Shown here: positions 26,568-55,952 of the stretch, piece after piece
How the letters are laid out: each line of letters opens with the position of its first letter
Position numbering within the stretch: position 1 is the first letter of the stretch
Source of the DNA: Thermoanaerobaculia bacterium
GTDB taxonomy: Bacteria; Acidobacteriota; Thermoanaerobaculia; Multivoradales; UBA5704
Assembly (NCBI GenBank): GCA_036002325.1
Contig: DASYTJ010000038.1
Location: 10,665 to 74,664 of the forward strand
Length of the DNA stretch: 64,000 nucleotides
Direction: 5' to 3'
Made by a program: the position numbers and the translations under genes
Notes under the pieces: model-generated
Told to the model about the DNA's origin: nothing
The model's input: the letters and a program-made list of their open reading frames with translations, nothing else
Databases searched by the model: none

Positions 26568-29500
26568 ATGCCCATTCGTGAGACACGTTTCCGTCTCGTC
26601 GCCTTCCTTCTGTTCCTGCTGGCCGTCCTGCCGGTCCTGGCGGCGCCGGCGAAACAGGCGTCCACGCCGGCTTTCTCCGATCTTCCCGAGCTCAAGCCCT
26701 TCAAGTATCGGTTGATCGGTCCGGCCTGGGGCGGCCGGGTGGCGCGCGCCACCGGCGTGCCCGGCAATCCCAGCGTTTACTACGCCGCCACGGCCTCGGG
26801 CGGCGTCTGGAAATCCGCGAACGGCGGCCTCTCGTGGAGCCCCGTTTTCGACGAGCAGGCGATCTCGTCCATGGGCTCGATCGCCATCGCCCCGTCCGAC
26901 CCCAACGTCGTCTATGCGGGCTCGGGCGAGGCGAACATTCGCGGCAACGTGGCGGCGGGCAACGGCATCTACAAGTCCATCGACGCCGGCAAGACCTGGA
27001 CGCACGTCTGGAAGCAGGAAGGGCAGATCGGCGAGATGGTGGTTCACCCCAAGAACGCCGACGTCGCCTTCGCCGCCGTCCTCGGGCACGCCTTCGGCCC
27101 CAACCCCGAGCGCGGCGTCTACCGCACGCGGGACGGCGGCAAGACCTGGGAGCAGGTGTTGAAGAAGGACGCCGAGACCGGCGCTTCGTCGGTCGCCCTC
27201 GATCCTTCCAATCCCAACGTCGTCTTCGCCGGCCTGTGGCAGGCGCGTCGCCGCCCGTGGGAGCTGACGAGCGGCGGACCGGGCAGCGGCCTGTGGGTCT
27301 CGCGCGACGGCGGCAGCACCTGGAAGCAGCTCACCGGCAAGGGCCTGCCCGAAGGCATTTGGGGGAAGGTCGGAGTGGCGGTGGCGCCCTCCGACGGCCG
27401 GCGGGTCTACGCGCTCATCGAAGCGGAGAAGGGAGGGCTCTTCCGGTCCGACGACGGCGGCGAGAGCTGGACCCTCGCCACGGCGGACCGCAAGCTGCGG
27501 CAGCGGGCCTGGTATTACACGACCCTGACAGTGAATCCGGCCAACCCGGACGAGATCTGGGCGCCCAACGTGCCGCTCCTCAAGAGCATCGACGGCGGCA
27601 AGACGTTCGAGATCTACAACGCTCCGGGCCTCAACCACGGCGACTATCACGACATCTGGATCGATCCGCTCAACGCCCGCCGGATGATCGCGTCCGACGA
27701 CGGCGGCGTGTACATCACCACCGACGGCGGCGAGAGCTGGCTGGACCCGAACCTGCCGATCGGCCAGTTCTACCACGTGTCGGCGGACAACCGGATACCG
27801 TTCCACGTGGCGGGGCCCCTGCAGGACATCGGCACCGCGCAAGGGCCCAGCGACTCGCTGACCCGCGGCGGGGTGCCCAACTCCTTCTGGCACGGCGTCG
27901 GCGGCGGCGAGGCCGGCTGGGTGGTCTCCGATCCGTCGGACCCCAACATCGTTTATGCCGGCGAGTACCTCGGCTACCTCTCCCGCTACGACCATCGCAC
28001 CGGTGAGCAGCGCGACGTCAGCCCGTGGCCGGAGAACCCCTCGGGCCATGGCGGCGAAGACATGCGCTACCGCTTCCAGTGGGTCGCGCCCATCGCCGTC
28101 TCGCCGCACGATCCGAAGGTGGTCTACTACGGCGCCAACGTCGTCTTCCGCACCGCCGACGGCGGCCAGACCTGGACCGCCATCAGCGGCGATCTGACGA
28201 CGAACGACAAGTCGAAGCAGAAGTGGTCCGGCGGCCCCATCACCGGCGACAACACCGGCGTCGAGACCTACTGTACCGTGTTCGTCATCGCCGAGTCGCC
28301 GGTGCAGAAAGACCTCATCTGGGCGGGAAGCGACGACGGACTGGTGCACGTCACCGACGACGGCGGCAAGACCTGGCGCAACGTCAACGCCAGCGTTCCC
28401 GGCCTGCCGCAATGGGGAACGGTCAACATGATCGAGCCCTCGCACTTCGAAGCCGGCACCGCCTACCTGGCGGTGGACGCCCATCGGCTCGACGACATGA
28501 CTCCCTATCTCTGGAAGACGACCGACTTCGGCCGCACCTGGAAGCGCCTCGACGGCGGCCTGCCGCGCGACGTCTATCTCCACTCCGTGCGCGAGGATCC
28601 GGCGCACCGCGGCCAGCTCTACCTCGGCACCGAGCGCGGCGTCGCCTTCTCCCGCGACGACGGCGCCACCTGGCACCCGCTCAAGCTCAACCTGCCTACT
28701 GTCGCCGTGCACGACCTGGTGGTGAAGGACGACAAGCTCGTGGTCGGCACCCACGGCCGCTCGCTGTGGATCTTCGACGACCTCGCCGTGGTGCGCGAGC
28801 CGGTGCCGGAGTCGGCGAAGTCGGCCGGCTTTTATCTGTATCCCGCGCCCGAGGCCGTGCGTTGGGAGCTCCGCGGCGGTCCCGCCGACTCGTGGACCGG
28901 CCAGAACCCGCCTCGCGGTGCCCGCGTCTACTACTGGCTGGCGAAAGAGCCCAAAGGGGACGTCACCCTGGAGATCCTTGACGCCTCCGGCACCGTCGTC
29001 GCCACCCTTTCGAGCAAGCCCAAGGAGCCCACCGGCGCCTACGAGTACGTGAAGGAGGAGCGCGAGCAGCTCAAGGAGCTGGCCCTGCCCAAAGGCGAGG
29101 GCGTGCAGCGCGCCGTATGGCCCTTGGCCTGGGACGGCGCCGAGATGATCCCCAACGCCAGGCTGGATAGCGGTTACCCGGGCGTCGGACCCACCGCCCT
29201 GCCGGGCACCTACAGCGTGCGCCTGACGGTGGACGGCAAATCCGCCTCGACCTCCCTGGTCCTGCGTCCGGACCCGCGCGTCACCGCCTCGCAGGCCGAC
29301 GTGGAGGAGCAGCTCCGCTTCTCGCTGGAAGTGCGCGACGCCGTCACCCGTCTCACCCGCGCCGTGGTGCGGCTGCAGACCGTCCGCCGCCAGCTCGCGC
29401 AGCGCAACGAGCTGCTGGCCAAGGAAGACAAGGCCAAGCCTCTGATCGACTCCTCGCAGGCGCTGATCGCCAGATTGGACGACTTGGAGGCGCGCATGCA

Positions 29501-29765
29501 TAACCCGAAGGCCGAGGTCTCCTACGACATCCTGGCGATGCAGGGCGGCACCAAGCTCTACTCGCGCATGTCCCCCCTCCTCTCCTGGATCGACGGCGGC
29601 AACGGCGCGCCGACCGCGGGCATGCGGGAGGTGTTCGCCGCTCAGCTCGAGGAGCTCACGGGCTACGAGGCCGAGCTCTCCACGCTGATCGAGAAGGACC
29701 TGGCGGACCTCGACAAAACCGCCGGCCAGCTCGGCGTGCCGGGGATCTACGTGCCGGCGAAGTAG
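26568..29765 (+). CDS. secreted BNR/Asp-box repeat protein (Sortilin/VPS10-like, 1065 aa)
   Basis: Signal peptide plus at least 11 Asp-box motifs (SxDxGxTW: SIDAGKTWT, TRDGGKTWE, SDDGGESWT, TADGGQTWT...). Confidence 0.75.
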   Translation: MPIRETRFRLVAFLLFLLAVLPVLAAPAKQASTPAFSDLPELKPFKYRLIGPAWGGRVARATGVPGNPSVYYAATASGGVWKSANGGLSWSPVFDEQAISSMGSIAIAPSDPNVVYAGSGEANIRGNVAAGNGIYKSIDAGKTWTHVWKQEGQIGEMVVHPKNADVAFAAVLGHAFGPNPERGVYRTRDGGKTWEQVLKKDAETGASSVALDPSNPNVVFAGLWQARRRPWELTSGGPGSGLWVSRDGGSTWKQLTGKGLPEGIWGKVGVAVAPSDGRRVYALIEAEKGGLFRSDDGGESWTLATADRKLRQRAWYYTTLTVNPANPDEIWAPNVPLLKSIDGGKTFEIYNAPGLNHGDYHDIWIDPLNARRMIASDDGGVYITTDGGESWLDPNLPIGQFYHVSADNRIPFHVAGPLQDIGTAQGPSDSLTRGGVPNSFWHGVGGGEAGWVVSDPSDPNIVYAGEYLGYLSRYDHRTGEQRDVSPWPENPSGHGGEDMRYRFQWVAPIAVSPHDPKVVYYGANVVFRTADGGQTWTAISGDLTTNDKSKQKWSGGPITGDNTGVETYCTVFVIAESPVQKDLIWAGSDDGLVHVTDDGGKTWRNVNASVPGLPQWGTVNMIEPSHFEAGTAYLAVDAHRLDDMTPYLWKTTDFGRTWKRLDGGLPRDVYLHSVREDPAHRGQLYLGTERGVAFSRDDGATWHPLKLNLPTVAVHDLVVKDDKLVVGTHGRSLWIFDDLAVVREPVPESAKSAGFYLYPAPEAVRWELRGGPADSWTGQNPPRGARVYYWLAKEPKGDVTLEILDASGTVVATLSSKPKEPTGAYEYVKEEREQLKELALPKGEGVQRAVWPLAWDGAEMIPNARLDSGYPGVGPTALPGTYSVRLTVDGKSASTSLVLRPDPRVTASQADVEEQLRFSLEVRDAVTRLTRAVVRLQTVRRQLAQRNELLAKEDKAKPLIDSSQALIARLDDLEARMHNPKAEVSYDILAMQGGTKLYSRMSPLLSWIDGGNGAPTAGMREVFAAQLEELTGYEAELSTLIEKDLADLDKTAGQLGVPGIYVPAK

Positions 29766-29771
29766 GTTCCC

Positions 29772-29806
29772 ACCGCTGGTGTAGGGGCGCAGGCTGCTGC
29801 GGCCCC
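29772..29806. repeat. direct repeat 1 (CCGCTGGTGT + imperfect hairpin GGGGCGCAG..CTGCGGCCCC) upstream of the FN3-GH gene
   Basis: Shares the CCGCTGGTGT..AGGGGCGCAG..GCTGCG(G)CCCC arrangement with 32868-32909. Confidence 0.5.
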
Positions 29807-30041
29807 TAAAAAGATCCGTTCTCTCTGGAGTGCTGTGCCGTGACGGCGCCTCAATTCCGCATGCGGATATGTTTGTCTCCTCATCTTCCAATACATTAAC
29901 ATAATTGCAAAAACTAATCAGACATGATATGAATGTCGGTTGAGCTTCCTGACGCAGATGAGCTCGCCAGGATGAATGCTCACAGGAGTTGCGACGCTCG
30001 CGACTTCCTGCACCGCGAAATCTCACTGGAACGGAGTGAGC

Positions 30042-32852
30042 ATGAAATCTAAGTGTGTGTCCTTGATCATCCTGTCCTACATTCTTCCCCAGCTTGCAGC
30101 GTTAGCGACGAGCGCTCCAAGCAACTTGGCGGCAACCGGAGTGTCGAGCAGTCAAGTCAATCTGACCTGGACGGATAATTCGTCCAGCGAAACCGGCTTC
30201 ACTTTCGCCTTCGATACGAACAGCGGACTGACGAGCCCGACGTACACCTACGCGGGCGGAGTCAACACCACCAGCTACTCCCATACGGGACGAAATGCGG
30301 CAACGACGTATTATTACAAGATCAAGGCTGAAGGAAACCCGGACTCCGCGTGGTCCACGGTGGACAGCGCCACCACGGCGCCTGCCAACCTGGCGGCCAC
30401 GGCCACTTCCAACAGCGCGATCAATCTCACCTGGTCCGGCAACGGAAGCAACGCAGCGATTACCGGCTATACCTACGGCTACGCCGCCAACAGCTCCTTC
30501 ACCGGCGCGACGTATCATTACGTGGCGGGAAATGGGAGCACCAGCGCCTCACGAACGGGATTGGGTACGGCTACAACTTACTGGTTCAAGCTCAAGGCCG
30601 AAGGAACCTCAGACGCTTTGGACTCGCCCTACGGAACGGTCGTCAAGGCAACGACGACTCCCGCCGGCTTGGTGGCGAGCGTCGTCTCGAGCAGCCAGAT
30701 CAACCTCTCCTGGACGGGGAACTCCGGCAATTCGAATCTCATCGGCTATACGATCGCCTACGCCACTAACAGCTCGTTTTCGGGTGCGGTCTATCAGTAC
30801 GTTGCCGGAGCGGGCGCCACGAGCTACAGCAATACGGGCCTCTACGCGGGCACGACCTACTACTACAAAATCAAGGCGGAAGGCACGTCGGATTCGTATG
30901 ATTCCGCGTTCACCGCATTCATCTCTGCGACGACGACAGCGGCCGCGCCGAACCCTCCCAGCGGGCTGACCGCAGTGACGGCATCCAGCTCCCGGATCGA
31001 TCTGAGCTGGACGGATAATTCCAGCGACGAGACGGGGTTCGAAGTCAAGCGCGCCACGGACAGCGCCTTCACCCAGAACGTCGTCTGGATCGGCGGGATC
31101 CAGGGCACGACCTTCTCCAGCACCGGCTTGAGCGCCGCAACCACCTATTACTACAAGGTGAGGGCGCAAGGAGCGACGCAGAGCTCCGCTTACTCGGCCG
31201 CCGTCAGCGCGACTACGGACCCTTCCGGAGAGACGATTCCCAATGCGCCGAGCGGATTGGCGGCGACAGCGGTGTCCAGCACTCAGGTCAATCTGAGCTG
31301 GACGGATAACTCCAGCAATGAAACGGGATTTGAAATCAAACGCGCCACCGATAGCGCCTTCACCCAGAACGTGGTATGGATCGGCGGGATTCAAGGCTCC
31401 ACCTACGCCAATACCGGCTTGAGTCCCGCAACGACTTATCATTACAAGGTCCGGGCCGAGGGGACGGCAGGAAAGTCCGCATACTCGGCCGCGGTGAGCG
31501 TGGCGACCAGCGGTTCTTCCGTTTCCTCAGGCACACCGATCTCGCCCCATTTCGCGGGCATCAACGCCTGGATGCCCTATCAGATCGGACCCCATGTCTA
31601 CAACGGGAAGTTGGAGTCGAAATGGGCGGAGGTGCAGGCGAGCGGCGTGCAAATCATGAGGTATGGAGGCAATGGCGTCGATCACTATGCGGACCCGACC
31701 TGGGTGGAGACCATGGATCAGTACGTGGTGCTGGCCGACGCCATGAGGAGCAGGGGGATCGAGCCGGTGCTGCAGGTCCCCGTGTATGGGGATGCCTTCA
31801 GTGCGTCCCAGGCCGCGGATATCGTCAGACACGTCAACATCGACAACGCCCGGGCGGTGAAGTATTGGAGCATCGGCAATGAGCCTGATCTGACCAGCGG
31901 CGTCTATCAGATGACGACCGCGGCTCAGGTAGCATCCTACTTCAAGCCCTTCGCCTCGGCCATGAAGGCGGTTGACCCCAGCATCAAGATCATCGGCCCC
32001 GACACCGCGTGGTATCACGAGAGCATCATCGACGGATTGACGAGCTGTGACGGAAGTGCGGACGACATTACGGGCACGGACGGCAACGGCAACTTCTACG
32101 TGGATATCCTTTCGTTCCACATCTATGGGTTCGACGGCTCGCAAAGCACCCGGTCGCAAGTGATCTCGAAGCTCACGGCAGCGGGCGGTTTCAATGACGA
32201 TCTCGGCACCCTGAATGCGCGAGTGGCCGTCTGTAACAGCTATTATGGAAGGACCGGCGGCAACGCTCTCAAGGTGGCCGTCACCGAGGCGAACGTCGAT
32301 TATGAGAACCCTGCGGGGGACGGCGTCACCGGCCTGGGAGCGAAGAGCTTCATCGGTGGGCAGTTCTGGGCCGAATTGATGGGCATCGCCATGCAGCGGG
32401 GAGTCGACTTCGTCACCTTCTGGAGCACGATCGAAGGGGACGAGCTCGGTTATCTCAGCGGCGATGGCAGCACCAAGCGGCCCTCCTACTATCATTTCCA
32501 GATGATGGCTCAGAACTTCAGAGGGAACTCGGTTGCGGCGACGGACAACAGCCAACCTAATGTGAAGACATTCGGCGCCCAAGACGTCGACCAGATCGCC
32601 GTGATGATCATGAACCAGGACTCGGCGAATGGCTTCGATTATAGCGTTCGGCTGGACACCGGCACCGTATCCGGCATCAATCCCCTGAAGATCAATATCG
32701 ATGCGGGCGTCGCCGTTCAGTACAATGGGACGATCTCCACCGAATCGAGCATCGTGCTGATCTTCGACGCCTCCGGGGCCTTCAAAAAGAAGATCGAATA
32801 CAAGCGCAGCGGCCATGCGGACCTGAATCTGCCGCCGACGGTAACACCCTAA
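30042..32852 (+). CDS. secreted protein with 5 tandem fibronectin type III domains and a C-terminal clan GH-A (TIM-barrel) glycoside hydrolase domain
   Basis: Signal peptide (MKSKCVSLIILSYILPQLAALA). Five repeats of ...INLSWTDNSS.ETGF...YYYK(V/I)(K/R)A... Catalytic-type motifs WSIGNEPD (acid/base) and VAVTEANV (nucleophile). The gene is markedly lower in GC than its surroundings. Start set at ATG 30042 with a GGAGTGAG SD. Confidence 0.75.
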   Translation: MKSKCVSLIILSYILPQLAALATSAPSNLAATGVSSSQVNLTWTDNSSSETGFTFAFDTNSGLTSPTYTYAGGVNTTSYSHTGRNAATTYYYKIKAEGNPDSAWSTVDSATTAPANLAATATSNSAINLTWSGNGSNAAITGYTYGYAANSSFTGATYHYVAGNGSTSASRTGLGTATTYWFKLKAEGTSDALDSPYGTVVKATTTPAGLVASVVSSSQINLSWTGNSGNSNLIGYTIAYATNSSFSGAVYQYVAGAGATSYSNTGLYAGTTYYYKIKAEGTSDSYDSAFTAFISATTTAAAPNPPSGLTAVTASSSRIDLSWTDNSSDETGFEVKRATDSAFTQNVVWIGGIQGTTFSSTGLSAATTYYYKVRAQGATQSSAYSAAVSATTDPSGETIPNAPSGLAATAVSSTQVNLSWTDNSSNETGFEIKRATDSAFTQNVVWIGGIQGSTYANTGLSPATTYHYKVRAEGTAGKSAYSAAVSVATSGSSVSSGTPISPHFAGINAWMPYQIGPHVYNGKLESKWAEVQASGVQIMRYGGNGVDHYADPTWVETMDQYVVLADAMRSRGIEPVLQVPVYGDAFSASQAADIVRHVNIDNARAVKYWSIGNEPDLTSGVYQMTTAAQVASYFKPFASAMKAVDPSIKIIGPDTAWYHESIIDGLTSCDGSADDITGTDGNGNFYVDILSFHIYGFDGSQSTRSQVISKLTAAGGFNDDLGTLNARVAVCNSYYGRTGGNALKVAVTEANVDYENPAGDGVTGLGAKSFIGGQFWAELMGIAMQRGVDFVTFWSTIEGDELGYLSGDGSTKRPSYYHFQMMAQNFRGNSVAATDNSQPNVKTFGAQDVDQIAVMIMNQDSANGFDYSVRLDTGTVSGINPLKINIDAGVAVQYNGTISTESSIVLIFDASGAFKKKIEYKRSGHADLNLPPTVTP

Positions 32853-32867
32853 CGAACGATCGAGGGG

Positions 32868-32909
32868 GACAGCCGCTGGTGTGCAGGGGGGCGCAGCAAG
32901 CTGCGCCCC
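32868..32909. repeat. direct repeat 2 (CCGCTGGTGT + hairpin GGGGCGCAG-CAAG-CTGCGCCCC); terminator between convergent FN3-GH and HAF genes
   Basis: Perfect 9-bp stem with a 4-nt loop. Same prefix motif as 29772-29806. Confidence 0.55.
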
Positions 32910-32946
32910 GTCAGATTCCTCGCGGCCGGCGAGGAACGTCCTTTCC

Positions 32947-34101
32947 CTACGGCACCGGCGTCGCCAAAAACGCCGGCCGCTCGCCGGTGGCCGGATCGAA
33001 GGCCCGGCCGGTGATCTCGCCGCGGTCGTTGATGTCCTGCGCCGTGGTGAGCACGCCGGTATAGCCGGGCGCGACGAGCGCGTTGAGGTCCCGTATGAGG
33101 CCGTCCTGCCAGAGGAAGGCCCGGCAGGCGCCGCCCGCGTCGCAGGAGATGCCCACTACCTGGCCGCGGTCGTTGATGCCGTGCGCCTCGCTGTATACGT
33201 CGCCCGGCAGCGTGCCGAGATTCTGGATGCCGTCGCGCCGGGTCCACAGGAAAGCCCGGAGCTGGGGATTATCCGGATCGTCGCCGGGCTGACTGAGAAA
33301 GCCCACGACGTCACCCCGTTGATTGATGGCCGTCGGCGTGTTCCAGGTGTCGCCTCCGATATTGCCGAGGTCGATCACCGTGCCCTTCTCCCAGAGCACG
33401 GCGTGAGCGGCGGTGAAGCGGCCCACCGCCTGGTCGCAGGTGCCGGAGATGCCGACGATCTGGCCCTTGTCGTTGATCGCGGTGGCGGCGCCGGACGTGT
33501 CGCCCGGCAGCGGCGGCAGCTCGTGGATCTGGTCCGTTCGCGGCTCCCACACCACGGCCCGGAACTGCAGCACCTGGGGCGGCACGCAGGTCGAATCGTG
33601 CACCATGTTCTCCGCCCAGCCGACCACCTGGCCGCGGTTGTTGGCGCCGGCGGCGTAGCCATTGTTGCCCCCCAGCGTGGGCAGCGCCCGCATCACGCCC
33701 CCTTCCCAAACGAAACCGAGGCAGATGTGGCCGGTGGCGGTGGCCGGAGGGAAGAATGCCGAGCAGCTCCAGTTTTCACCCAGCGGATCGGGATCGGCCG
33801 TCTGGGAGATTCCCGCCAGCAGGCCGCGGTTGTTCTTCACCGGCCAGGCCACGCTGCTGTTGGGGCCGCCCAGGGTGCCGAGATCGAGCGCCTCGCCGTC
33901 CCGCCACAGCGTGGCGTGCCGGGTCAGGTTCCCCACCAGGTTGGAATAGCCTGAGACCCAGCCCCGATTGTTGATGCTGTTCCCCCGGCTCACCGCGCCG
34001 CCGAGCGAGGGGAGGTTGGTGACGTGGTACTCGCCGCCATAGGCGGCGCCGGCCAGCAACGCCGACGCGAGGATGACGATTCGTGCGCGCAGGGACTTCA
34101 T
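32947..34101 (-). CDS. secreted HAF-family extracellular repeat protein
   Basis: Signal peptide. Repeated units ending ...NN/INxRGQVVG... and HA(V/T)LW / RAFLW, typical of the HAF repeat family (TIGR03803-like). Start at ATG 34101. Confidence 0.65.
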   Translation of the reverse strand: MKSLRARIVILASALLAGAAYGGEYHVTNLPSLGGAVSRGNSINNRGWVSGYSNLVGNLTRHATLWRDGEALDLGTLGGPNSSVAWPVKNNRGLLAGISQTADPDPLGENWSCSAFFPPATATGHICLGFVWEGGVMRALPTLGGNNGYAAGANNRGQVVGWAENMVHDSTCVPPQVLQFRAVVWEPRTDQIHELPPLPGDTSGAATAINDKGQIVGISGTCDQAVGRFTAAHAVLWEKGTVIDLGNIGGDTWNTPTAINQRGDVVGFLSQPGDDPDNPQLRAFLWTRRDGIQNLGTLPGDVYSEAHGINDRGQVVGISCDAGGACRAFLWQDGLIRDLNALVAPGYTGVLTTAQDINDRGEITGRAFDPATGERPAFLATPVP

Positions 34102-34265
34102 GGTTGCCTCCTTCAGGCCGAACACTCTGCGACAGTGCGAGTGCACGGCTAAAACCCTACGAACCCCGCGCCTCGATTGCTCGCCATTTTCGGACGCTGA
34201 AACTGCGAAATTACGAGTCCGAATCCGGCGAGACGCCGGCCTGCCCGCGGGTGTAGGGTGGTGAC

Positions 34266-35726
34266 GTGCTCGAACCCATCGGCTTTCCTCCGACCCTGCC
34301 CGCCCACATCTGCCAGCGCGCCCTCGACGCGCGCGACCCCCGCTTCGACGGCCTCTTCTTCGTCGGCATCGTTACCACCCGCATCTACTGCCGGCCGACC
34401 TGCCCGTCGCGGCGGGCGGATCCCGATCACCGGCGCTTCTTCAACTCTCCCGCCGCCGCCGAGCGCGCGGGGTTCCGGCCCTGCCTACGCTGCCGACCGG
34501 AGCTGGCGCCGGGGCGGGCGCCCATCGATCCGGTGTCGCGCCTCGCCTACAAAGCCGCGCACCGCATCGCCGCCGGAGCGCTGAACGGCCGCAAGGTGGC
34601 CGATCTCGCCGCCGACCTGTGCGTCAGCGAGCGGCATCTCCGCCGCGCCCTGCAGCGTGAGATGGGCGTCTCGCCGGTCGAGCTGGCGCAGACCCACCGG
34701 CTGCTGCTCGCCAAACGCCTCCTCGCCGAGACCGCGCTCTCGGTGACCGATGTCGCCTTCGCCAGCGGCTTCGAGAGCCTGCGGCGCTTCAACTTCGCCT
34801 TTCACGAGCGCTACGGGATGAGCCCCAGCGCGCTGCGGCGGCCGGCGCCGGTGAACGATCTCCTGCGCCTGACGCTGGCCTACCGTCCGCCGCTTGCCTG
34901 GGAGGAGCTCATCAGCTTCCTGGGTCGCGAGGCCACGCCGGGCGTCGAGGCCGTGGCGGGCCGCCGTTACAGCCGTACGGTCCGGCTCGACGGGCGGAGT
35001 GGCGTCGTCGTCGCGGAGGACTCGCCGGCCGAAGCGCAGGTGACGGTCGACGTCTCCTCCTCGCTCCTGCCGGTGCTCATGCCCCTGCTCGCGCGCCTGC
35101 GGCAGCTCTTCGACCTCGACGCCCAGCCCACCGTGGTGGACGCCCATCTCGAACGGGGCGGGCTCGCTGCGCTCGTCCGCCGGCGGCGCGGCGTGCGCCT
35201 CCCCGGCGCGCTCGACGGCTTCGAGGTCGGCCTCCACGCCCTGCTCAGCGGCGGTGCGTCATCGGCAGCGGAGGCGCGCGAGCTGGCCGGCCGCATCGCG
35301 GCCGCCCTGGGGGAACCGCTCGACACCGGCGTTCCGGGTCTCGACCGGCTGGCCCCGAGCGCCGAACACGTGGCCGAGGCCGGAGCGCCGGGGCTGGCCG
35401 CGTGCGGCGTACCGTCACCGTGCGCGGAGATCCTCACGGCCTTCGCCCGGGCCGTCGCCGGCGGAGCGCTGCCTCTCGAGCCGGGGAACGACGTGGCCGA
35501 GACGCATCGCGCACTGATGGAGGTCGCCGGCATGGATGAAGCCCTGGCGACCACGATCGTGATGCGCGCGCTTTACTGGCCCGATGCCTTCCCCTGGACC
35601 GACCCCGGCCTCCTCAGCGCGGCGGGAGCTCCCAGCCCCCGCGCTCTCCGCACCCGAGCGGAGAAGTGGCGCCCCTGGCGCGCCTATGCGGCGCTCCACC
35701 TCTGGCTACGGCAGGAAGAGGTCTGA
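34266..35726 (+). CDS. Ada-type regulatory domain (Zn-binding + AraC HTH) fused to AlkA-like DNA-3-methyladenine glycosylase II (HhH-GPD)
   Basis: N-terminal CQRALDARDPRFDGLFFVGIVTTRIYCRPTCPSR...CLRC (Ada Zn domain), AraC-type HTH (HLRRALQREMGVSPVELAQTHRLLLAKRLL), C-terminal AlkA N-domain plus HhH-GPD region. Confidence 0.8.
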   Translation: MLEPIGFPPTLPAHICQRALDARDPRFDGLFFVGIVTTRIYCRPTCPSRRADPDHRRFFNSPAAAERAGFRPCLRCRPELAPGRAPIDPVSRLAYKAAHRIAAGALNGRKVADLAADLCVSERHLRRALQREMGVSPVELAQTHRLLLAKRLLAETALSVTDVAFASGFESLRRFNFAFHERYGMSPSALRRPAPVNDLLRLTLAYRPPLAWEELISFLGREATPGVEAVAGRRYSRTVRLDGRSGVVVAEDSPAEAQVTVDVSSSLLPVLMPLLARLRQLFDLDAQPTVVDAHLERGGLAALVRRRRGVRLPGALDGFEVGLHALLSGGASSAAEARELAGRIAAALGEPLDTGVPGLDRLAPSAEHVAEAGAPGLAACGVPSPCAEILTAFARAVAGGALPLEPGNDVAETHRALMEVAGMDEALATTIVMRALYWPDAFPWTDPGLLSAAGAPSPRALRTRAEKWRPWRAYAALHLWLRQEEV

Positions 35727-35790
35727 TCCTTTCTTTCCTTAAAATTTTGGGTCTTCCGCAGAATCTGTGGGTCGACAGCGTTGGGTCGGT

Positions 35791-35811
35791 GGGGCGTCTG
35801 GCAACGCCCCC
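35791..35811 (+). terminator. hairpin GGGGCGTCTGGCAACGCCCC downstream of the Ada-AlkA gene
   Basis: 7-bp GC stem read directly. Confidence 0.35.
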
Positions 35812-35919
35812 GCCATTGCGCCTTCTTCAATCAGCGATGGGTGGTGCGTCGCAAGCGGCGGGGCGCCGAAGCCCAACGGCTCCGACTTGATTATCTTTCT
35901 TACGATGATGAAAAAATAA

Positions 35920-36228
35920 CTCCTTCTTCGTCGGCGCCCTGGCGGAGCAGAAGCACACATCCGTTTCGAGACGGACATCGATCTTGCCCTCGGCGAGGTC
36001 GTAGTGGATCCGCTGCGGCTCAGGCAGGTCCTCTACAACTATCTTTCGAACGCCCTGAAGTTCACCCCTGCCGAGGGCCGCGTAACGGTGCGTGCCCGCG
36101 TCGAGGGCGAGCGGCACTTCCGGCTCGAAGTGGAGGATACGGGGATCGGCATCCGGCCGGAGGACATCGGCCGTCTCTTCGCGGACTTCGAGCAGCTCGA
36201 AACGGGCAGCACGAAGAAGCAGGCGGGG
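35920..36228 (+). pseudogene. histidine kinase fragment (end of HisKA/start of HATPase_c: D-box/N-box/G1), truncated at both ends
   Basis: In-frame translation ...DPLRLRQVLYNYLSNALKFTPAEGRVTVRA...LEVEDTGIGIRPEDIGRLFADFEQLETGSTKKQAGT breaks exactly where GLGLAI should follow. A stop codon lies just upstream at ~35917 and there is no sensor/H-box. Confidence 0.5.
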
Positions 36229-36289
36229 ACGGTCAGGGGAGTACCTTCTTCGCCGTTCTCCCCCGCGTGGCCGGGGAAGCTCCTACGAT

Positions 36290-36450
36290 TTCTAGAACCT
36301 CAAGCTGAGGTCAAGCCCGAAAATGTTGGCGGTGTAGTCGCCGACGTCCGCGTTGAGGAGCATGGCGCCCGGCAGGTAGTTCTGCAGGCCCTGGAGGATG
36401 AAGCTGTCGATGGCGTAGTCCTCGCAGCGGTAGAAGAGGCCGGCCGTGGC
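36290..36450 (-). pseudogene. possible C-terminal remnant of an outer-membrane beta-barrel protein (ends ...DYTANIFGLDLSLRF-stop)
   Basis: ~50 codons without a start, terminal Phe and alternating hydrophobic pattern. Weak. Confidence 0.25.
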
Positions 36451-36526
36451 TCACGGGTGTGGGTCCTGGACGCACCGTCCAGATTCAGGATGGATCCTTC
36501 TGCGGACGATCCAGCTCGAAGGCTAA

Positions 36527-37432
36527 ATGACTGATTCTTCGTGGCAACTCTCCACGGCCCCGGTGGCGCGGGGCTTGCTCTTTCCGAGGCCAGAGACGCG
36601 AAGCCGGAAAGCCGTTCATGCCGGGACCTCGCGCGGAAAGGCCCGGGCCATGCGCCAGGAACGACAGAGTCCTGCTGTCCATCGATCCTCCGGAGGAGCG
36701 CGCATCCTGCGCCGGCATCCGTGGCTCCTCGGGTACCTGCACGTGGCTGGCTTCGCCACCCTGCTGGCTCTGGGCTTGGTGGTCGAGCGCGCGGAGTCGG
36801 CGGCCGATCACTTGCTCTCCTGGCGCGCGCGAGCTGTGAGAGTCACCAGCCTGCTCGGCCACCTGCGCTGGCAGCTCAGCGAGCTCGAGAACGCGGAGCG
36901 CGGATTCATCATCACCGGCGATCCGCGGTGGGTCGACCGCTGCCGCGGTGGCGTGGAGACGGTTCAGCAGGATCTGATGCTGCTGCGGCTGCTGGTCGTG
37001 GATGGCGGGCAGCGGCTTCGCCTGGACCGGCTGCAACCCCTCATCGCCGCCCGTCTCGCCTACCTCGGGGAAACTCTCGATGTCCGCCGGCGAGAGGGCA
37101 GGGGAGCGGCGGGCTCGGCGATCGTTAGCGGCCGTGACGAGGCACTCAGGGACGAGATCCACCGCCGGATCTCGACCCTGCTCAAAGGCCAGGAGCGCCT
37201 GCTCGCCTACGGCGACGCGCGCCTGCGGACGCGCGTCATGCAGGCGCGCTGGTGGCTGCTGGTGGGATTGCTGTGGAGCGTCCCACCGCTGGCGCTGCTG
37301 GTTCGCTGGTCGCGGCGCCAGGTCCGGCATTGGAAGGAGATGGTCGACTTCCAACAGGCGAACGGCAGGGGAGCACACGGCGGCTTAGCCGGTTGTCACG
37401 TCTTGGATGGACGCCCTCACATGGATAGGTGA
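36527..37432 (+). CDS. CHASE3-type periplasmic sensor domain protein lacking any transmitter (truncated sensor kinase N-terminus)
   Basis: TM1 (HPWLLGYLHVAGFATLLALGLVV), periplasmic region with ENAERGFIITGDPRW (CHASE3-like ERG(Y/F)L(L/I)TGD motif), TM2 (WWLLVGLLWSVPPLALLV), then stop. Real start possibly ATG 36650. Confidence 0.6.
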   Translation: MTDSSWQLSTAPVARGLLFPRPETRSRKAVHAGTSRGKARAMRQERQSPAVHRSSGGARILRRHPWLLGYLHVAGFATLLALGLVVERAESAADHLLSWRARAVRVTSLLGHLRWQLSELENAERGFIITGDPRWVDRCRGGVETVQQDLMLLRLLVVDGGQRLRLDRLQPLIAARLAYLGETLDVRRREGRGAAGSAIVSGRDEALRDEIHRRISTLLKGQERLLAYGDARLRTRVMQARWWLLVGLLWSVPPLALLVRWSRRQVRHWKEMVDFQQANGRGAHGGLAGCHVLDGRPHMDR

Positions 37433-37443
37433 CGGGCGCCGGG

Positions 37444-38971: not shown

Positions 38972-39277
38972 TCAGGCTGTCCGGCGAGACCGGACTCGCG
39001 GCTCAACCTCTGGCCAGACGTCACGCCTGGCAATCTTCAGGTCGTAGCGCGACTGCAGATTGAGCCAGAACTGTGCTGGAACGCCGAAGTATTTCTCGAG
39101 CCGCAGCGCCGTATCCGCGGTGACGCTGCGGCGGCCATGAACCAGCTCGCTGATGCGCGCGACAGGTACGTCGAGGTCCCGCGCGAGCTGATTCTGACTG
39201 ATTCCCAAGGGCTCCATGAACTCGTAGCGCAGGATCTCCCCCGGAGGGATGGGGTCGAGAGGGTGCCCTTCTTCCAT
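38972..39277 (-). CDS. higA: HigA-family antitoxin (XRE-type HTH)
   Basis: ISQNQLARDLDVPVARISELVHGRRSVTADTALRLEKYFGVPAQFWLNLQSRYDL matches the HigA antitoxin family. Confidence 0.85.
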   Translation of the reverse strand: MEEGHPLDPIPPGEILRYEFMEPLGISQNQLARDLDVPVARISELVHGRRSVTADTALRLEKYFGVPAQFWLNLQSRYDLKIARRDVWPEVEPRVRSRRTA

Positions 39278-39296
39278 AGCGGGTTCCTTTGAGGCT

Positions 39297-39575
39297 TCAG
39301 TGGCAATCCACGATCTCTACGTTAAAGCTGTCTCCCTCAGACCACTCGAAACAGATTCTCCATTGATCGTTGATTCGGATGCTGTACTGCCCGGCGCGGT
39401 CTCCTTTAAGCGCTTCCAGGCGATTTCCAGGAACGAGGGAAAGCGCGGCGAGACTCGGCGCCGCGTCGAGTACTTCGAGCTTCCTGCGCGCCGTCCTTTC
39501 AATAGCCTGAAAGCGCCGCACGAACCGGTCCGCGAACAATGCCTCGGCATCTCGGCACCGGAACGTCCTGATCAC
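39297..39575 (-). CDS. higB: HigB-family toxin (RelE/ParE superfamily, 'plasmid maintenance system killer')
   Basis: MIRTFRCRDAEALF...RRKLEVLDAAPSLAALSLVPGNRLEALKGDRAGQYSIRINDQWRICFEW matches HigB. Located 20 bp upstream of higA. Confidence 0.8.
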   Translation of the reverse strand: MIRTFRCRDAEALFADRFVRRFQAIERTARRKLEVLDAAPSLAALSLVPGNRLEALKGDRAGQYSIRINDQWRICFEWSEGDSFNVEIVDCH

Positions 39576-48949: not shown

Positions 48950-50734
48950 TCAGAACGTATCCCTGGTCGTCACCAGCCACTGCACCCGTTCGATCGAGCG
49001 GTTGGCGTCCAGGGGAAACGCGACGTCGAGGTGCAGGACGGCGCCGCGGGAGGAGCGGCTGGAGCCGAGGCGCAGGCCGAGGCCGGCGTCCTTGAGAATC
49101 CGGCGCTCCTGGGCGGCGAGCTTGGGGTCCCGCTGCGACCGGGGGTTCACGAACCAGGCCTGGCCGGCGTCGAAGAAGACGGCGGCACCCAGGTGGACGA
49201 GGTGGAAGAGCTCGCGGTCGCTGAAGAACCGCTGCTCGAGCGTGAGCAGGACGCGGCGGTCGCCGGCCTGGTAGCGGAGGGGATAGCCGCGCAGCCCGCT
49301 GTCGCCGCCGAGCAGGAGCTGGTCTTCGCCGTCGAGGCGGTGGGCTAGGTCGGCGCCGAGCGCGGCGTAGAAGACCTGGTCACCGAAGTCGCGCGCGTAC
49401 CAGCGCACCTTGCCGCCGGCCACCAGGTCCTCGGCGTCGCCGTCCGCCCAGCGGGTGGAGCCGCCGAGCTGGGCGAGGACGAGCTGGCGCCGGGTGGGCC
49501 GCCAGCCGGTGGAGGCCGCGCTCTGGACGATCCAGCGCTCGCCGTCGCCGCCGAAGGCCGGGGAGGACAAGCCGAGGAGGAGGTTGAACTGCCGGCCGAG
49601 GTTGAGGTCCTCCGAGCGCTGGATGCGGTCGAGATCTCGCTCCACCACGAAGCGGTCCTGCACCGACTCGAAGCTGATCCAGGGGTAGGCGAGCCGGCGG
49701 TCGGGCGGCAGGGTAACCAGCTTCGGAATGGAGGAGGAGGCCTTGAAGGCAGACCGCGAGAACTTCGACGACAGCGTGAACGCGTCGTCCGACCAGGTGA
49801 AGCCGAAGCGCAGCCGCCGCGCCGCGCCCTCCCGGAGGCCGCTCGAGAGGCCGCCGTAGATCTCCAGGAACTCGTGCTCATGGTTGAAGCCGACGATGGC
49901 CTTGCCGGCGGTATAGAGCTGCTCGAGGCGGTCGTCGCGGAACGCGCGCACGCCCGCCGCCCAGCGCGAGCTGAGCGAGTAGAAGGGCCGCTCCAGCTCG
50001 AAGCGCTCCCGCCCGCCGTCGCTGTTGTCGGCATAGGAGAGGGTCAGCCGGACGCGGCTCCCGAGCAGGTTGGGATCGCGGTAGCGGACGAGGTTCGAGG
50101 TGCGGTCCACCGTCCCGATGCGCGAGATGGAGAGCTCTTTACCGGTGCCCAGGACGTTGGTGTCCTCCACCCACAGGCTCGTGTTGTTGGCGCCGCCCGA
50201 GCGGCTGAAGCTGGCGCCGCCCTCCAGCGTCCAGACGTCGCGGGTGGTCACCTCCACGTCCACCTTGCCGTCCTCGCGCAGCACCGGACGGATGTCCACG
50301 TCGTAGAGATAGTCGTTCTGCCGCAGCAGGCGCGCGGACTCGGCGATCAGCTCGGGAGAGAACACGTCGCCCGGCTTGAAGAGGAGCTGCCGCTCGATCA
50401 CCCCCGGGCGGGTGGAGCGGTGCACCTGGTTCGCCAGCCGGAACAGCCGGCCGTCTTCGCCGGGCTTCTCCGGATCAAAGAGGTCCTGGGCGACGACGCG
50501 CACCTCGCCGATGACGCTCCCCGGCGGAATCGCCGGAGCGCCCCGGACCTCGATGCCGGTAGCCAGGACCGGGGGCCGCGAAGCCCGCAGCCAGGAGGAG
50601 AGATTCGGGGACGGCTGCGCCGCTCCTGGATCGGGATGGGCCAGGAACAAGGCGCCGACAAGCGCACTGGCGGCCGTCAGCCGGCAGACACGGTCAAAGA
50701 CTGGCGGGCGGCGGACGCCGCGGCTCGAATCCAT
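48950..50734 (-). CDS. Omp85-superfamily outer-membrane beta-barrel protein with a single POTRA-like domain (BamA/TamA/TpsB-like), paralogue 1
   Basis: Signal peptide, POTRA-like segment (GEVRVVAQDLFDPEKPGEDGRLFRLANQVH...FKPGDVFSPELIAESARLLRQNDYLYDVDIRPV), barrel with LRGYPLRY loop-6-like motif, C-terminal ...TTRDTF. Confidence 0.6.
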   Translation of the reverse strand: MDSSRGVRRPPVFDRVCRLTAASALVGALFLAHPDPGAAQPSPNLSSWLRASRPPVLATGIEVRGAPAIPPGSVIGEVRVVAQDLFDPEKPGEDGRLFRLANQVHRSTRPGVIERQLLFKPGDVFSPELIAESARLLRQNDYLYDVDIRPVLREDGKVDVEVTTRDVWTLEGGASFSRSGGANNTSLWVEDTNVLGTGKELSISRIGTVDRTSNLVRYRDPNLLGSRVRLTLSYADNSDGGRERFELERPFYSLSSRWAAGVRAFRDDRLEQLYTAGKAIVGFNHEHEFLEIYGGLSSGLREGAARRLRFGFTWSDDAFTLSSKFSRSAFKASSSIPKLVTLPPDRRLAYPWISFESVQDRFVVERDLDRIQRSEDLNLGRQFNLLLGLSSPAFGGDGERWIVQSAASTGWRPTRRQLVLAQLGGSTRWADGDAEDLVAGGKVRWYARDFGDQVFYAALGADLAHRLDGEDQLLLGGDSGLRGYPLRYQAGDRRVLLTLEQRFFSDRELFHLVHLGAAVFFDAGQAWFVNPRSQRDPKLAAQERRILKDAGLGLRLGSSRSSRGAVLHLDVAFPLDANRSIERVQWLVTTRDTF

Positions 50735-51119
50735 GCTGGGAACTCCTTGAACGACCGTCAGTTCGGTGGATCATAACCCAAGGCGCCCCGAAAGTATCGT
50801 GTAGCAGCATCTTTCAGGGAGCGGCAAAGTCGGCTGAGGTGGTCTCTTCTTCAGAAGGCACCTCTGTGTGGACGCTCCGGGGGGCGGGCAGCCATGTTGG
50901 GCTGCCTCGACATGGAATCTCCTTGTTCCGACGATTTTGGCGGAGCCTTCGGCTTGTTTCAGGGAGCGGCGACTGGCCTGACGGTCAGGGTCCTCCGACA
51001 CACGCGGCGGCGGGTCAGGATGAGGGTCCTGCGAGCCCATGCCGGGTCTCGGCACCGCAAGCTGAATCGCACCGCCGCGGGCTCGCGGGCCGGTTTTTTG
51101 TGTTCGTGGAGCGCCACCG

Positions 51120-51745
51120 TCAGATGACGGGACGATTTCTCAGATGACGGAGCGATACCGCCAGATGAGGGCGTGATTTCTGAGATGGCGGAGCCGCCCC
51201 GTCATCTGACGGAGCGCTTTCTGATCCTGGGGAGCGCCGCCCCATCCTGCGGCGTTGTTTCTGAGATGAGGGAGCGCCGCCGTCAGATAAGGGCGCGGAT
51301 TCTGAGATAACGGAGCGGCTCCCCCATCTGACGGAGCGCTTTCTCATCCTGGGGAGCGCCGCCGTCATCCTGGGGCGCCGTTTCTCAGATCAGGGAACCC
51401 CGCCGTCAGATGAGGGCGCGGTTTCTGAGATGACGGAGCGGCTCCCCCATCTGACGGAGCGCCTTCTTATCCTGGGGAGCGCCGCCGTCATCCTGGGGCG
51501 CCGTTCCTCAAATGGGGGAACCCCGCCGTCAGATGGGGGCGCGGTTTCTGAGATGACGGAGCGGCTCCCTCATCGGCGGAGCGCCTTCTCATCCTGGGGA
51601 ACGCCGCCGTCATCCTGGGGCGCCGTTTCTCAGATGGGGGAGTCCCGCCATCAGATGGGGGCGCGGTTTCTGAGATGATGGAGCGGCTCCCTCATCTGGC
51701 GGAGCGCCTTCTCATCCTGGGGAACGCCGCCGTCATCTGACGTAG
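51120..51745. repeat. tandem repeat array: ~5 units of ~120 bp, each built from alternating inverted copies of a GTCAGATGGGGG(C)GCG-like motif
   Basis: Unit starts at about 51304, 51424, 51544 and 51664 (85-95% identical), with degenerate copies from 51120. Both strands are interrupted by stops. Confidence 0.8.
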
Positions 51746-52000
51746 CGAGGCCGTCACTTGACGGAAAGGCACCACAAGGCTGTGGCGCGAGGCTGCGAGC
51801 TGCTGCGGTGCAAGCCGCGAAGCCTTATTGAGGAACCATTTAGAGCGACGAGAAGCTTGGGCGCCGGCACCCGAGCTCAGCCGCGGGCGCTCTAGCCTCC
51901 GTCGTAGCCCGCCTCGACGAGCGCCGCGAGCTTCGTTGAGCTTTAGCCTGCATGGCAGTACTGTCTTGGCGGCCGCGGCTCATGGAGGCAAGGAACACCT

Positions 52001-54206: not shown

Positions 54207-55916
54207 TCAGAACGTATCCTTGGTCGACACCAGCCACTGCAGGCTCTTGACGTCGCGGCCGCCGTCGAGCGGGAAGGCGAGGTCGAGGTGGACCATGGTG
54301 CCGCGGGCGGAGGAGCGGCTGGAGCCGATGCGCAGGCCGATGCCGACGTCCCGCAGCAGCTCCCGGTCAGCCGCGAGCTTGCCGTCGACATCCTGGAACC
54401 AGGCCGAGCCGGCGTCGAAGAAGACTGCGGCGCCCAGATGCGCGAGATGGAAGAGCTCCCGGTTGCTGAAGAACCGCTGCTCGACGGTGAACAGCACGCG
54501 GTTGTCGCCTTGCAGGTAGCGCAGAGGGTAGCCGCGCAGACCGGTGTCACCTCCGAGCAGGAGCTGGTTCTCAGGGTCGAGATCGTGCGCCACGTCCCAT
54601 CCCAGGCTGACGTAGAAGAGATTGTTGCCGAAGTCGCGGATGTAGTAACGGAGACGGCCGCCCACCAGCAGGTTCTCGGCCACGCTGCGGTTCATCCGCG
54701 AGCCGCCCTGCAACGACGCCAGCACGAGCTGGCGCGGGCTCAGCCGCCAGCCGACGGAGCCGCCGACGTCGGCGATCAGGCGGTTGGCGTCGCCGCCGAA
54801 GACGGGGGAGGACCAGCCGAGGCGCAGATGGTACTGCTGCCCCAGGTTCACGTCTTCGGTCCGCTCGAGGCGGTCGAGGTCGCGGACGGTGAAGTAGCCG
54901 TCGTTGACGAACTCGTAGCTCAGCCAGGGATAGGCCAGGGTGCGGTCCGCCGGTATCAGCGACGGAGGCTCGAAACCCTCGGCGGTCGAGAAGCGGTCTC
55001 TCTCATAGGTGAAGCCGGTGCGCCAGCGGTGGGTCGAGCGATTGGCAAGGCCGGGCGAGAGACCGGCGTAGACCTCGAAGGTGTCCTGCCGGTGCTGGAA
55101 CCGGTCGAAGACGTGGCCGCGGTCGTAGAGGGGATCCACCCGGTCGTCCAGGTTCGCCGACAGCCCCAACGCCCAGCGCGTGTCGAGAGAGTAGAACGGC
55201 CGTTCCAGCAGCAATCTCGCGACGGCGCCGTCGCTGTTGGCGGAGTAGGCGGTGTCGAGCCGGCCGTGAGTTCCGAAGAGGTTCGGGTCCCGGTACTCGA
55301 TAAGGTTGGCCGTGCGGTCGACCGAGGTCTGGTGGGATACCGAGATGGCTTTGCCGGTGCCGAGGAAGTTGATGTCCTCGACGTCGAAGTGGACGGTATT
55401 GGTGCCGCCCGACCGGCGGAAGCCGACTCCCCCTTGCAGGGTCCAGACGTCGCGGGTGACGACTTCGAGGTCCACCTCGCCCTCGCCAGTCGGTACCGGG
55501 CGAATCCTCGCGTCGTAGAGGTAGGGATTCTTCCGCAGGATCCTCTCGGACTCCGCCGCTTGCTCCTCGGAGTACTCGTCGCCGGGCCTGAGGAGCACCT
55601 GGCGCTCGATCACCTCCGGCCGCGTGACGAAGTGGAAGCGGTCCGCCAGCCGGAAGAGGAGCTTGTCCTCCCCGGGCTCTTCGAGATCGAAGATGTTCTC
55701 CGTGACGACGTGGATCTGCCGCACTTTGGGCGGCTCAGAGGTGGCGGGTTCCTGGACCGGCAGCGTCTCGAGGCTGGCGTCCGGCGGCGCCACCTGCTGG
55801 GCCGGTGCCGGCTGTGCGGGAATCAGCGTGAGACCGAGAAGGAAGGGACAAAACGACGAGATGCGACGGCTGCGGCGGGTCGGCGACATGACGAACGGCT
55901 CCTGTCCTCGCCGCAT
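54207..55916 (-). CDS. Omp85-superfamily outer-membrane protein, paralogue 2
   Basis: Collinear with paralogue 1 (IHVVTENIFDLEEPGEDKLLFRLADRFHFVTRPEVIERQVLLRPGDEYSEEQAAESERILRKNPYLYDARIRPV...; C-terminal ...STKDTF). The 3' flank CAGAACGTATCC(C/T)TGGTCG shared with paralogue 1 is visible at DNA level. Confidence 0.6.
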   Translation of the reverse strand: MRRGQEPFVMSPTRRSRRISSFCPFLLGLTLIPAQPAPAQQVAPPDASLETLPVQEPATSEPPKVRQIHVVTENIFDLEEPGEDKLLFRLADRFHFVTRPEVIERQVLLRPGDEYSEEQAAESERILRKNPYLYDARIRPVPTGEGEVDLEVVTRDVWTLQGGVGFRRSGGTNTVHFDVEDINFLGTGKAISVSHQTSVDRTANLIEYRDPNLFGTHGRLDTAYSANSDGAVARLLLERPFYSLDTRWALGLSANLDDRVDPLYDRGHVFDRFQHRQDTFEVYAGLSPGLANRSTHRWRTGFTYERDRFSTAEGFEPPSLIPADRTLAYPWLSYEFVNDGYFTVRDLDRLERTEDVNLGQQYHLRLGWSSPVFGGDANRLIADVGGSVGWRLSPRQLVLASLQGGSRMNRSVAENLLVGGRLRYYIRDFGNNLFYVSLGWDVAHDLDPENQLLLGGDTGLRGYPLRYLQGDNRVLFTVEQRFFSNRELFHLAHLGAAVFFDAGSAWFQDVDGKLAADRELLRDVGIGLRIGSSRSSARGTMVHLDLAFPLDGGRDVKSLQWLVSTKDTF

Positions 55917-55952
55917 GATACAGCCAAAGGTGCCCTCGCCTCCCTACGCCGG

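Follow-up and report, generated by a model that had tools for sequence, protein, structure and literature searches.

A secreted glycoside hydrolase gene of probable lateral origin between two related hairpin repeats in a Thermoanaerobaculia chromosome

We examined a 64-kb stretch of contig DASYTJ010000038.1 from a Thermoanaerobaculia bacterium (hereafter the window), in which a gene for a predicted secreted glycoside hydrolase (GH) lies between two copies of a short repeat made of a sequence box and a GC-rich hairpin. Some 3.1 kb of sequence (roughly 29807-32872), consisting of this one gene and its own 5' region, would have been acquired laterally by the chromosome, with a related Thermoanaerobaculia lineage of lower genomic GC content as the probable donor. 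We regard acquisition of the gene and its 5' region from such a relative as likely. It is possible, though we lean slightly towards doubting it, that the pair of hairpins marks the insertion event, and the chances of the complete account, in which the acquired segment and the repeats are tied to one insertion, appear about even. The case is a fairly ordinary gene transfer, an event of a known kind, with one unexplained structural detail. If the account is true, soil members of the Thermoanaerobaculia, a poorly studied and uncultured group, have recently exchanged a gene for a secreted carbohydrate-active enzyme, which bears on how polysaccharide-degrading repertoires are assembled in the Acidobacteriota.

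Codon usage, location and flanking repeats of the hydrolase gene

The gene was lower in GC content than its surroundings (0.597, compared to 0.682 for the window, 0.689 for the upstream BNR-repeat gene and 0.65-0.70 for the adjoining 1-kb bins), as the original prediction of an acquired cassette had stated from the sequence. It also showed atypical synonymous codon usage, which serves as a criterion of lateral acquisition. GC content at third codon positions (GC3) was 0.78 (0.64-0.88 along the gene) versus 0.89-0.92 for the genes on either side. Measured against the gene pool of the window, the Karlin codon bias of the gene was 0.353, with most genes longer than 450 codons at about half that value (0.135-0.19). 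By the same measure, the hydrolase gene resembled the gene pools of two lower-GC relatives (0.22 and 0.27) more closely, and likewise its own orthologs (0.19-0.20), which themselves deviated from their hosts by 0.17-0.19. Because the orthologs in two hosts of 67% GC (L211 and L212) reach GC3 values of 0.90 and 0.93, the family does not force a low GC3; the third-position deficit is specific to the window copy and is a genuine codon-usage anomaly. The sister gene in the tree (P0001 in L087, 78% identical) was likewise atypical in its own host, with a GC3 of 0.78 beside neighbours at 0.94-0.95, and was situated at a third locus.

The change in composition was sharp at both ends. Both neighbouring genes were typical of the host, with a GC3 of 0.92 in the BNR gene and 0.90 in the downstream HAF-repeat gene, and these values held to the last 50 codons of each (0.96 and 0.92, respectively), so that the compositional switch coincides with the repeats. 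The lowest 200-nt GC bin of the window (0.465) fell within 29751-30350. The profile of GC and codon usage along the window, which had been proposed as a check, therefore supported a foreign origin of the gene.

The location of the gene is not conserved. The BNR protein was 61-87% identical to orthologs from 80 Acidobacteriota metagenome-assembled genomes (MAGs), the closest of which belong to Thermoanaerobaculia, and in none of these 80 genomes did the hydrolase, HAF or Ada-AlkA genes follow the BNR gene; similarity ended at the BNR stop codon. The finding that the original prediction had named as contrary to it, the same gene at the same locus in relatives, was thus not encountered. Upstream, the order of M14 peptidase, MurJ, MASE1 kinase and BNR genes was kept in three relatives. 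In four others (L006, L009, L013 and L022) the linkage of BNR (+) with a response regulator (RR)-DUF4388 gene (-) was kept, with 1.9-5.3 kb of differing genes between the two. In these relatives the interval carried DegV-DUF4388, permease and SDR genes, and in the window (29766-37443) it carried the hydrolase, HAF, Ada-AlkA, HATPase_c and CHASE3 genes. Judged by these gene contents, the interval resembles a local turnover hotspot. The insertion point would be the spacer between the convergent BNR and HAF genes within this variable stretch.

The closest orthologs of the hydrolase (P0003, P0004, P0005 and P0008, at loci L083, L085, L089 and L090) share another conserved neighbourhood, in the order FHA-GAF-sigma54 activator, kinase-TPR gene, hydrolase, 371-aa gene and DUF8436. 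The BLASTP comparison that had been suggested for tracing the origin of the gene returned best matches that were all from Thermoanaerobaculia, and the window gene nested within the Thermoanaerobaculia orthologs in the tree. Since the best matches all come from the same class, the donor would be a relative rather than a member of a distant phylum. No near-identical donor copy of the gene was found. Similar to other single-gene islets from lateral transfer, the gene is atypical in GC3 and codon bias, is sharply bounded, interrupts a conserved neighbourhood and has its orthologs elsewhere in relatives. It differs from such islets in having no tRNA gene, integrase or insertion sequence (IS) element, in its probable donor from the same class, and in being flanked by hairpin repeats instead of att-like cores.

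The repeats at the two gene ends lie in the same orientation, the left one starting 8 nt past the BNR stop codon and the right one 21 nt past the hydrolase stop codon. Within the window, exact CCGCTGGTGT was found only at 29773 and 32873, and the pattern GGGGCGCAG-N4-CTGCG(G)CCCC only at 29784-29806 and 32888-32909. The genome sequence scanned for copies amounted to 71.7 kb, comprising the window and 7.7 kb from an extension of the contig, and the extra 7.7 kb held no further copy. A local alignment of the two flanking spacers scored 32, compared to 15.8 +/- 2.3 for dinucleotide shuffles (0/3000 reached 32), and the best match to the left repeat anywhere in the window was the right repeat. The presence of related repeats on both sides, as originally described, was therefore confirmed. 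No copy of the motif was found in 1.5 Mb of relatives, a looser search for the box with any hairpin in 2.4 Mb of relatives' loci gave only noise, and the flanks of five orthologs showed no excess of similarity to each other, meaning that these orthologs have no bracketing repeats.

The two motifs, of 34-37 nt, would be related by descent. Most likely they act as stem-loops lacking a U-tract, which would terminate or stabilise the transcripts of the BNR and hydrolase genes. The second copy may have arisen with the insertion, for instance through recombination at a hairpin already present or next to it. The hairpin pair is important only if it is a recombination site and not two terminator or REP-like (repetitive extragenic palindrome) stem-loops.

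Contrary observations and alternative explanations

Several observations weigh against an acquired segment whose ends are marked by the repeats. About half of the GC deficit is due to amino-acid composition: GC at codon positions 1, 2 and 3 was 0.49, 0.53 and 0.78 in the hydrolase gene and 0.66, 0.49 and 0.92 in the BNR gene, and of the resulting gap of 0.092, first positions account for approximately 0.058 and third positions for approximately 0.046, with second positions offsetting 0.012. The protein is rich in Ser, Thr, Asn and Tyr, and its low first-position GC is a family trait, as orthologs in five relatives have a GC of 0.59-0.61 and a first-position GC of about 0.49 in loci of 64-66% GC. 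On this point the original prediction, which took low GC at face value, held only in part. Because the whole BNR-to-RR-DUF4388 interval varies, the absence of the gene from that interval in relatives is weak evidence for a single-gene insertion. The comparison found neither an empty site nor a near-identical strain lacking the insert, and the best-matching BNR orthologs, at only 86-87% identity, differed on both sides. The synteny comparison thus agreed with the prediction in that no BNR locus of a relative carries the hydrolase, but it yielded no BNR-HAF junction among relatives that are diverged and variable in this interval. Pfam scans of most window open reading frames (ORFs) revealed no integrase, transposase or recombinase genes.

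The repeats themselves add to these contrary points. Their likeness ended by about 37 nt; they were about 80% alike overall with a longest common exact run of about 10 nt, and they differed by a 4-nt spacer indel, in three of the four loop bases and by an additional G. The conserved blocks, by contrast, were exact. Exact blocks combined with a variable spacer and loop look more like a constrained family of elements than a fresh target duplication. Neither hairpin is followed by a T-run (the following bases are TAAAAAG and GTCAGAT) and the terminator scan called neither, so the two were rejected as canonical intrinsic (Rho-independent) terminators. A hairpin with the outer stem of the window hairpins was also seen in L212, the only other one in approximately 1.6 Mb of relatives. 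It lies at L212 8306-8332 (GGGGCGCAGGCG-TCCCG-CGCCTGCGCCC), 32 nt past the stop codon of an ortholog with 63% identity, and hairpins of this type were absent from the closer orthologs examined.

Among the alternatives, we consider it rather unlikely that the repeats simply belong to a species-specific family of hairpins, REP-like or terminators, that is spread across the genome, with the history of the gene independent of them. This was examined in the 71.7 kb of this genome and the approximately 1.6 Mb of relatives. REP singlets are short GC-rich palindromes in extragenic positions with a conserved 5' box, and both window repeats share these traits: each is GC-rich and imperfectly palindromic, measures about 35 nt, follows closely on a stop codon and has a 5' box (GTAG abuts the left stem). 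The exact blocks with variable loop and spacer, the similar stem beside the L212 ortholog, and the GC hairpins without a U-tract that are common after stop codons in the relatives' genomes all fit such a family, and two copies per 72 kb would extrapolate to roughly 200 in a 7-Mb genome. Their distribution argues otherwise: the only two copies in view occupy adjacent spacers, an arrangement with an estimated chance of about 4% for two random placements among some 45 spacers, and the motif was absent from the 1.5-2.4 Mb of relatives searched. The 9-mer stem arm was not over-represented (5 observed, 3.2 expected), a count on which the idea of a DNA uptake sequence was also rejected. Other strong intergenic hairpins in the window were few and none was related. 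In a metagenome scan using the box with half of the stem, a loose pattern, none of 120 had a complete hairpin among the matches listed (at least 120), and all were unrelated and mostly coding. Compared to REP/BIME (bacterial interspersed mosaic element; REPIN) systems with a REP-associated tyrosine transposase (RAYT), the window motif was seen only twice in 72 kb and never as inverted doublets, and a RAYT gene is likewise missing from the sequence in view. REPs are known as insertion targets (PMC1525189).

A native, vertically inherited gene is a less probable alternative still, and one that we find distinctly unlikely; the low GC would then reflect the Ser/Thr/Asn/Tyr-rich composition together with weak codon selection, and the position an ordinary rearrangement. 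Consistent with this, the first-position GC of about 0.49 and the GC of 0.59-0.61 are traits of the family in every host, the best homologs all belong to Thermoanaerobaculia/Acidobacteriota, and synteny is generally fluid in the clade. Moreover, in the one MAG comparable for both genes, BP_60, identity was 73-75% for the hydrolase (P0005) and 79% for BNR, whose gene is on another contig, and these values fit species divergence. Internal relocation would leave codon usage unchanged, yet the gene has a bias roughly double that seen in comparable host genes, and orthologs from similarly GC-rich hosts are fully host-like, at GC3 0.90-0.93. The loss of the family's sigma54 promoter from the window copy and the recurrence of the same anomaly in P0001, in another high-GC host and at another locus, also speak against vertical inheritance.

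The remaining alternatives concern the physical ends of the segment. It is very improbable that the segment is a non-autonomous mobile cassette with direct hairpin ends recognised in trans by an HUH/Y1 transposase (IS200/IS605 or RAYT) or by an integron-like integrase. IS200/IS605 ends carry subterminal hairpins in direct orientation, and by analogy the same-orientation hairpins with a conserved 5' box at both ends may resemble this geometry, as may the same-strand subterminal hairpins without terminal inverted repeats resemble PATE-type (palindrome-associated transposable element) derivatives. As weak evidence, TTCC occurs immediately outside the left end and again 7 nt past the right hairpin, and joining these points (a hypothetical insert-free junction of ...GTAGGTTCC with TCGCGGCCGG...) would restore a 32-nt convergent spacer. 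Nonetheless, a 4-nt TTCC match is about 10% likely at random, and the two stems are preceded on their 5' sides by unlike bases (TGTA and CAGG), which therefore cannot both guide cleavage at TTCC. Pfam scans of most ORFs in the window identified no Y1, RAYT, IntI or other recombinase genes. An IS200/IS605-type or PATE element was rejected, as the window had no Y1_Tnp match and guide pairing, judged by eye, did not fit; such elements also differ from the segment in that it has no tnpA or tnpB in the window, guide bases that match no common cleavage site, and a metabolic cargo of 2.8 kb. The segment is like an integron cassette in that one gene is bounded by structured imperfect palindromes in direct orientation. 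Unlike attC sites (57-141 nt), however, the motifs are 23-nt hairpins without RYYYAAC/GTTRRRY (R''/R') cores; there is no attI or cassette array, the supposed cassette has a long 5' region of its own (277 nt), and the integron/attC reading was rejected on hairpin length, missing core sites and the absence of intI from the Pfam-scanned ORFs. Searches of viral contigs, plasmids and phages did not turn up the element, and a plasmid or phage vector was rejected for want of relevant matches.

Scarcely more probable is the related idea that CCGCTGGTGT with the GGGGCGCAG hairpin forms the end site of a hairpin-specific recombinase encoded elsewhere, which would move promoter-bearing single-gene cassettes between Thermoanaerobaculia. 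If true, such hairpin-ended, non-autonomous cassettes would form a new class, and the L212 stem would be another footprint of the system. Least probable of all, to the point of being negligible, is an assembly chimera joined at the repeats. A compositional switch exactly at short repeats in metagenome-derived sequence does bring this to mind. The repeats have no exact run in common longer than about 10 nt, which falls far short of assembler k-mer sizes; a 144-kb Joint Genome Institute (JGI) contig is 100% identical to window positions 16568-39765 and a Logan contig from a different pipeline is 100% identical over 29615-33074. Because both contigs span both junctions without a difference, the arrangement is not an assembly accident, and the chimera was rejected. 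Of the cassette proposed in the original prediction, lateral acquisition thus stands as probable, on the codon usage, the absence of the gene after BNR in relatives and the orthologs elsewhere, whereas the repeats as recombination sites find no support, given the lack of a recombinase gene in the window, of attC features and of an empty site and the differences between the copies.

Predicted enzyme and its 5' region

The ORF of the hydrolase begins with ATG, preceded by a GGAG ribosome-binding site at 30033-36. Its product is predicted to be a Sec-secreted enzyme with five FN3 modules and a retaining hydrolase of clan GH-A, the architecture originally read from the sequence. The N-terminus (MKSK, a hydrophobic stretch and ALA|TS) resembles a Sec signal peptide, and Pfam recognised five fn3 stretches (E 1.3e-35). 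For the catalytic domain, the GH39 match in Pfam was sub-threshold (20.5 bits, cut-off 26), PDB sequence matches to GH79, GH51 and GH39 were marginal (E >= 9e-4 over about 70 aa), and neither search gave a significant profile match to the specific CAZy families GH39, GH51, GH44 or GH79. An AlphaFold2 model of the last 450 aa (predicted local distance difference test score, pLDDT, 93) consisted of a (beta/alpha)8 barrel followed by a beta-sandwich, and the best Foldseek matches in the PDB were GH51, GH44, GH79, GH39 and GH30 (E 1e-15 to 5e-19; identity 13-17%). Across the 45 homologs from which this model was built, Glu614 (NEP) and Glu749 (TEAN), which are E128 and E263 of the model, were invariant. 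The modelled barrel with a conserved NEP acid/base Glu and a nucleophile Glu places the predicted enzyme in clan GH-A. With GH51, GH44, GH79, GH39 and GH30 it shares the barrel with a C-terminal beta-sandwich, the NEP acid/base on strand 4 and the nucleophile Glu on strand 7; it differs in being only 13-17% identical to any solved member, with its sole Pfam family match below threshold. The family was also found in Bacteroidota, where its members carry type IX secretion system (T9SS) tails.

The number of FN3 modules in orthologs ranged from 0 to 3, and the five in the window copy were the largest array seen. Modules 4 and 5 (30948-31216 and 31239-31507) were 75% identical in DNA, which points to a recent internal duplication as their probable origin.

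The spacer upstream of the gene is the most AT-rich of the window, and a TTGCAA-N17-TATGAA pair is present in it, as first reported; the pair matches only 8/12 consensus positions of a sigma70 promoter, however, and the promoter scan made no call. By comparison, all seven orthologs examined (L082, L083, L085, L089, L090, L211 and L212) possessed a sigma54-type -24/-12 promoter 71-113 nt upstream of the ATG, in the form TGGYAYGG-N4-TTGCA or GGCACG-N4-TGGCA. No such promoter (GG-N10-GC) was found in window positions 29766-30041 except for a match overlapping the ribosome-binding site. It was noted that window positions 29880-29935 retain just AATTGCA of the ortholog promoter, with the GG lost, and that L083, L085 and L089 also encode the FHA-GAF-sigma54 activator and a Ser/Thr kinase-TPR protein near the hydrolase ortholog. 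If the lateral acquisition is true, the transfer was accompanied by loss of the family's sigma54 control and by growth of the FN3 array to five modules.

Neighbouring genes and other features of the window

Features of the hydrolase locus, with positions in the window
Feature	Position	Strand	Details
BNR/Sortilin-Vps10 repeat protein, left neighbour	26568..29765	+	1065 aa; Pfam, NCBIfam
Left repeat	29773..29806	+	box CCGCTGGTGT (29773-82), 1-nt spacer, hairpin GGGGCGCAG-GCTG-CTGCGGCCCC (29784-29806)
AT-rich 5' region of hydrolase gene	29807..30041	+	GC 0.49 (0.494)
Weak sigma70-like pair	29905-10 / 29928-33	+	TTGCAA / TATGAA, N17 apart
Secreted 5xFN3 + clan GH-A glycoside hydrolase gene (predicted)	30042..32852	+	ORF, 936 aa; Pfam, AlphaFold2 model
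Putative Sec signal peptide	~aa 1-23	+
FN3 module starts	30114, 30378, 30657, 30954, 31245	+
Catalytic domain	~31539 to 32849	+
Putative acid/base Glu614	31881-83	+	GNEPD motif
Putative nucleophile Glu749	32286-88	+	VTEANV motif
Right repeat	32873..32909	+	box CCGCTGGTGT (32873-82), 5-nt spacer GCAGG, perfect 9-bp hairpin GGGGCGCAG-CAAG-CTGCGCCCC (32888-32909)
Second hairpin, unrelated to repeats	32916..32936	.	TTCCTCGC-GGCCG-GCGAGGAA; 10 nt from HAF stop codon
HAF-repeat protein gene, right neighbour, convergent with hydrolase gene	32947..34146	-	TIGR02913 HAF_rpt, E 1e-37

The window is core-chromosomal, carrying ribH, nusB, leuS, lptE, tol-pal, murJ, aroC, rnb and aspS. The hairpin beyond the right repeat is probably a stem-loop of the convergent HAF gene. 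No tRNA or tmRNA genes were found in the 64 kb, and a tRNA-linked island was rejected on this basis. No Rfam family reached the gathering threshold anywhere in the window, and the interval 29700-30100 had none at E<=1.

Other structures were recorded at a distance from the hydrolase locus. A toxin-antitoxin pair occupies 38972-39575 (-), made up of a HigA-like antitoxin (38972-39277) and a HigB-like toxin (39297-39575); it sits in a patch of lower GC (0.59), and the JGI gene calls agree (HTH_3, HigB-like_toxin). An intergenic tandem array at 51108-51747 has periods of about 20.5, 41 and 123 nt, with 123-nt units about 90% alike and alternating inverted sequences of about 20 nt (…CCGTCAGATGA… / …TCATCTGACGG…), and is flanked by an Omp85-family gene and a DUF4440 gene. 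Two Omp85/POTRA paralogs on the minus strand (48950-50770 and 54207-55943) lie about 5.2 kb from each other, with 71-76% identity at the DNA level along several hundred bases. Five small genes immediately to the left of window position 1 (L215 5401-8180) directly precede ribH-nusB-leuS; they include an XRE/CI-like helix-turn-helix (HTH) protein and a 454-aa protein without a Pfam match, and the run may be a small accessory islet.

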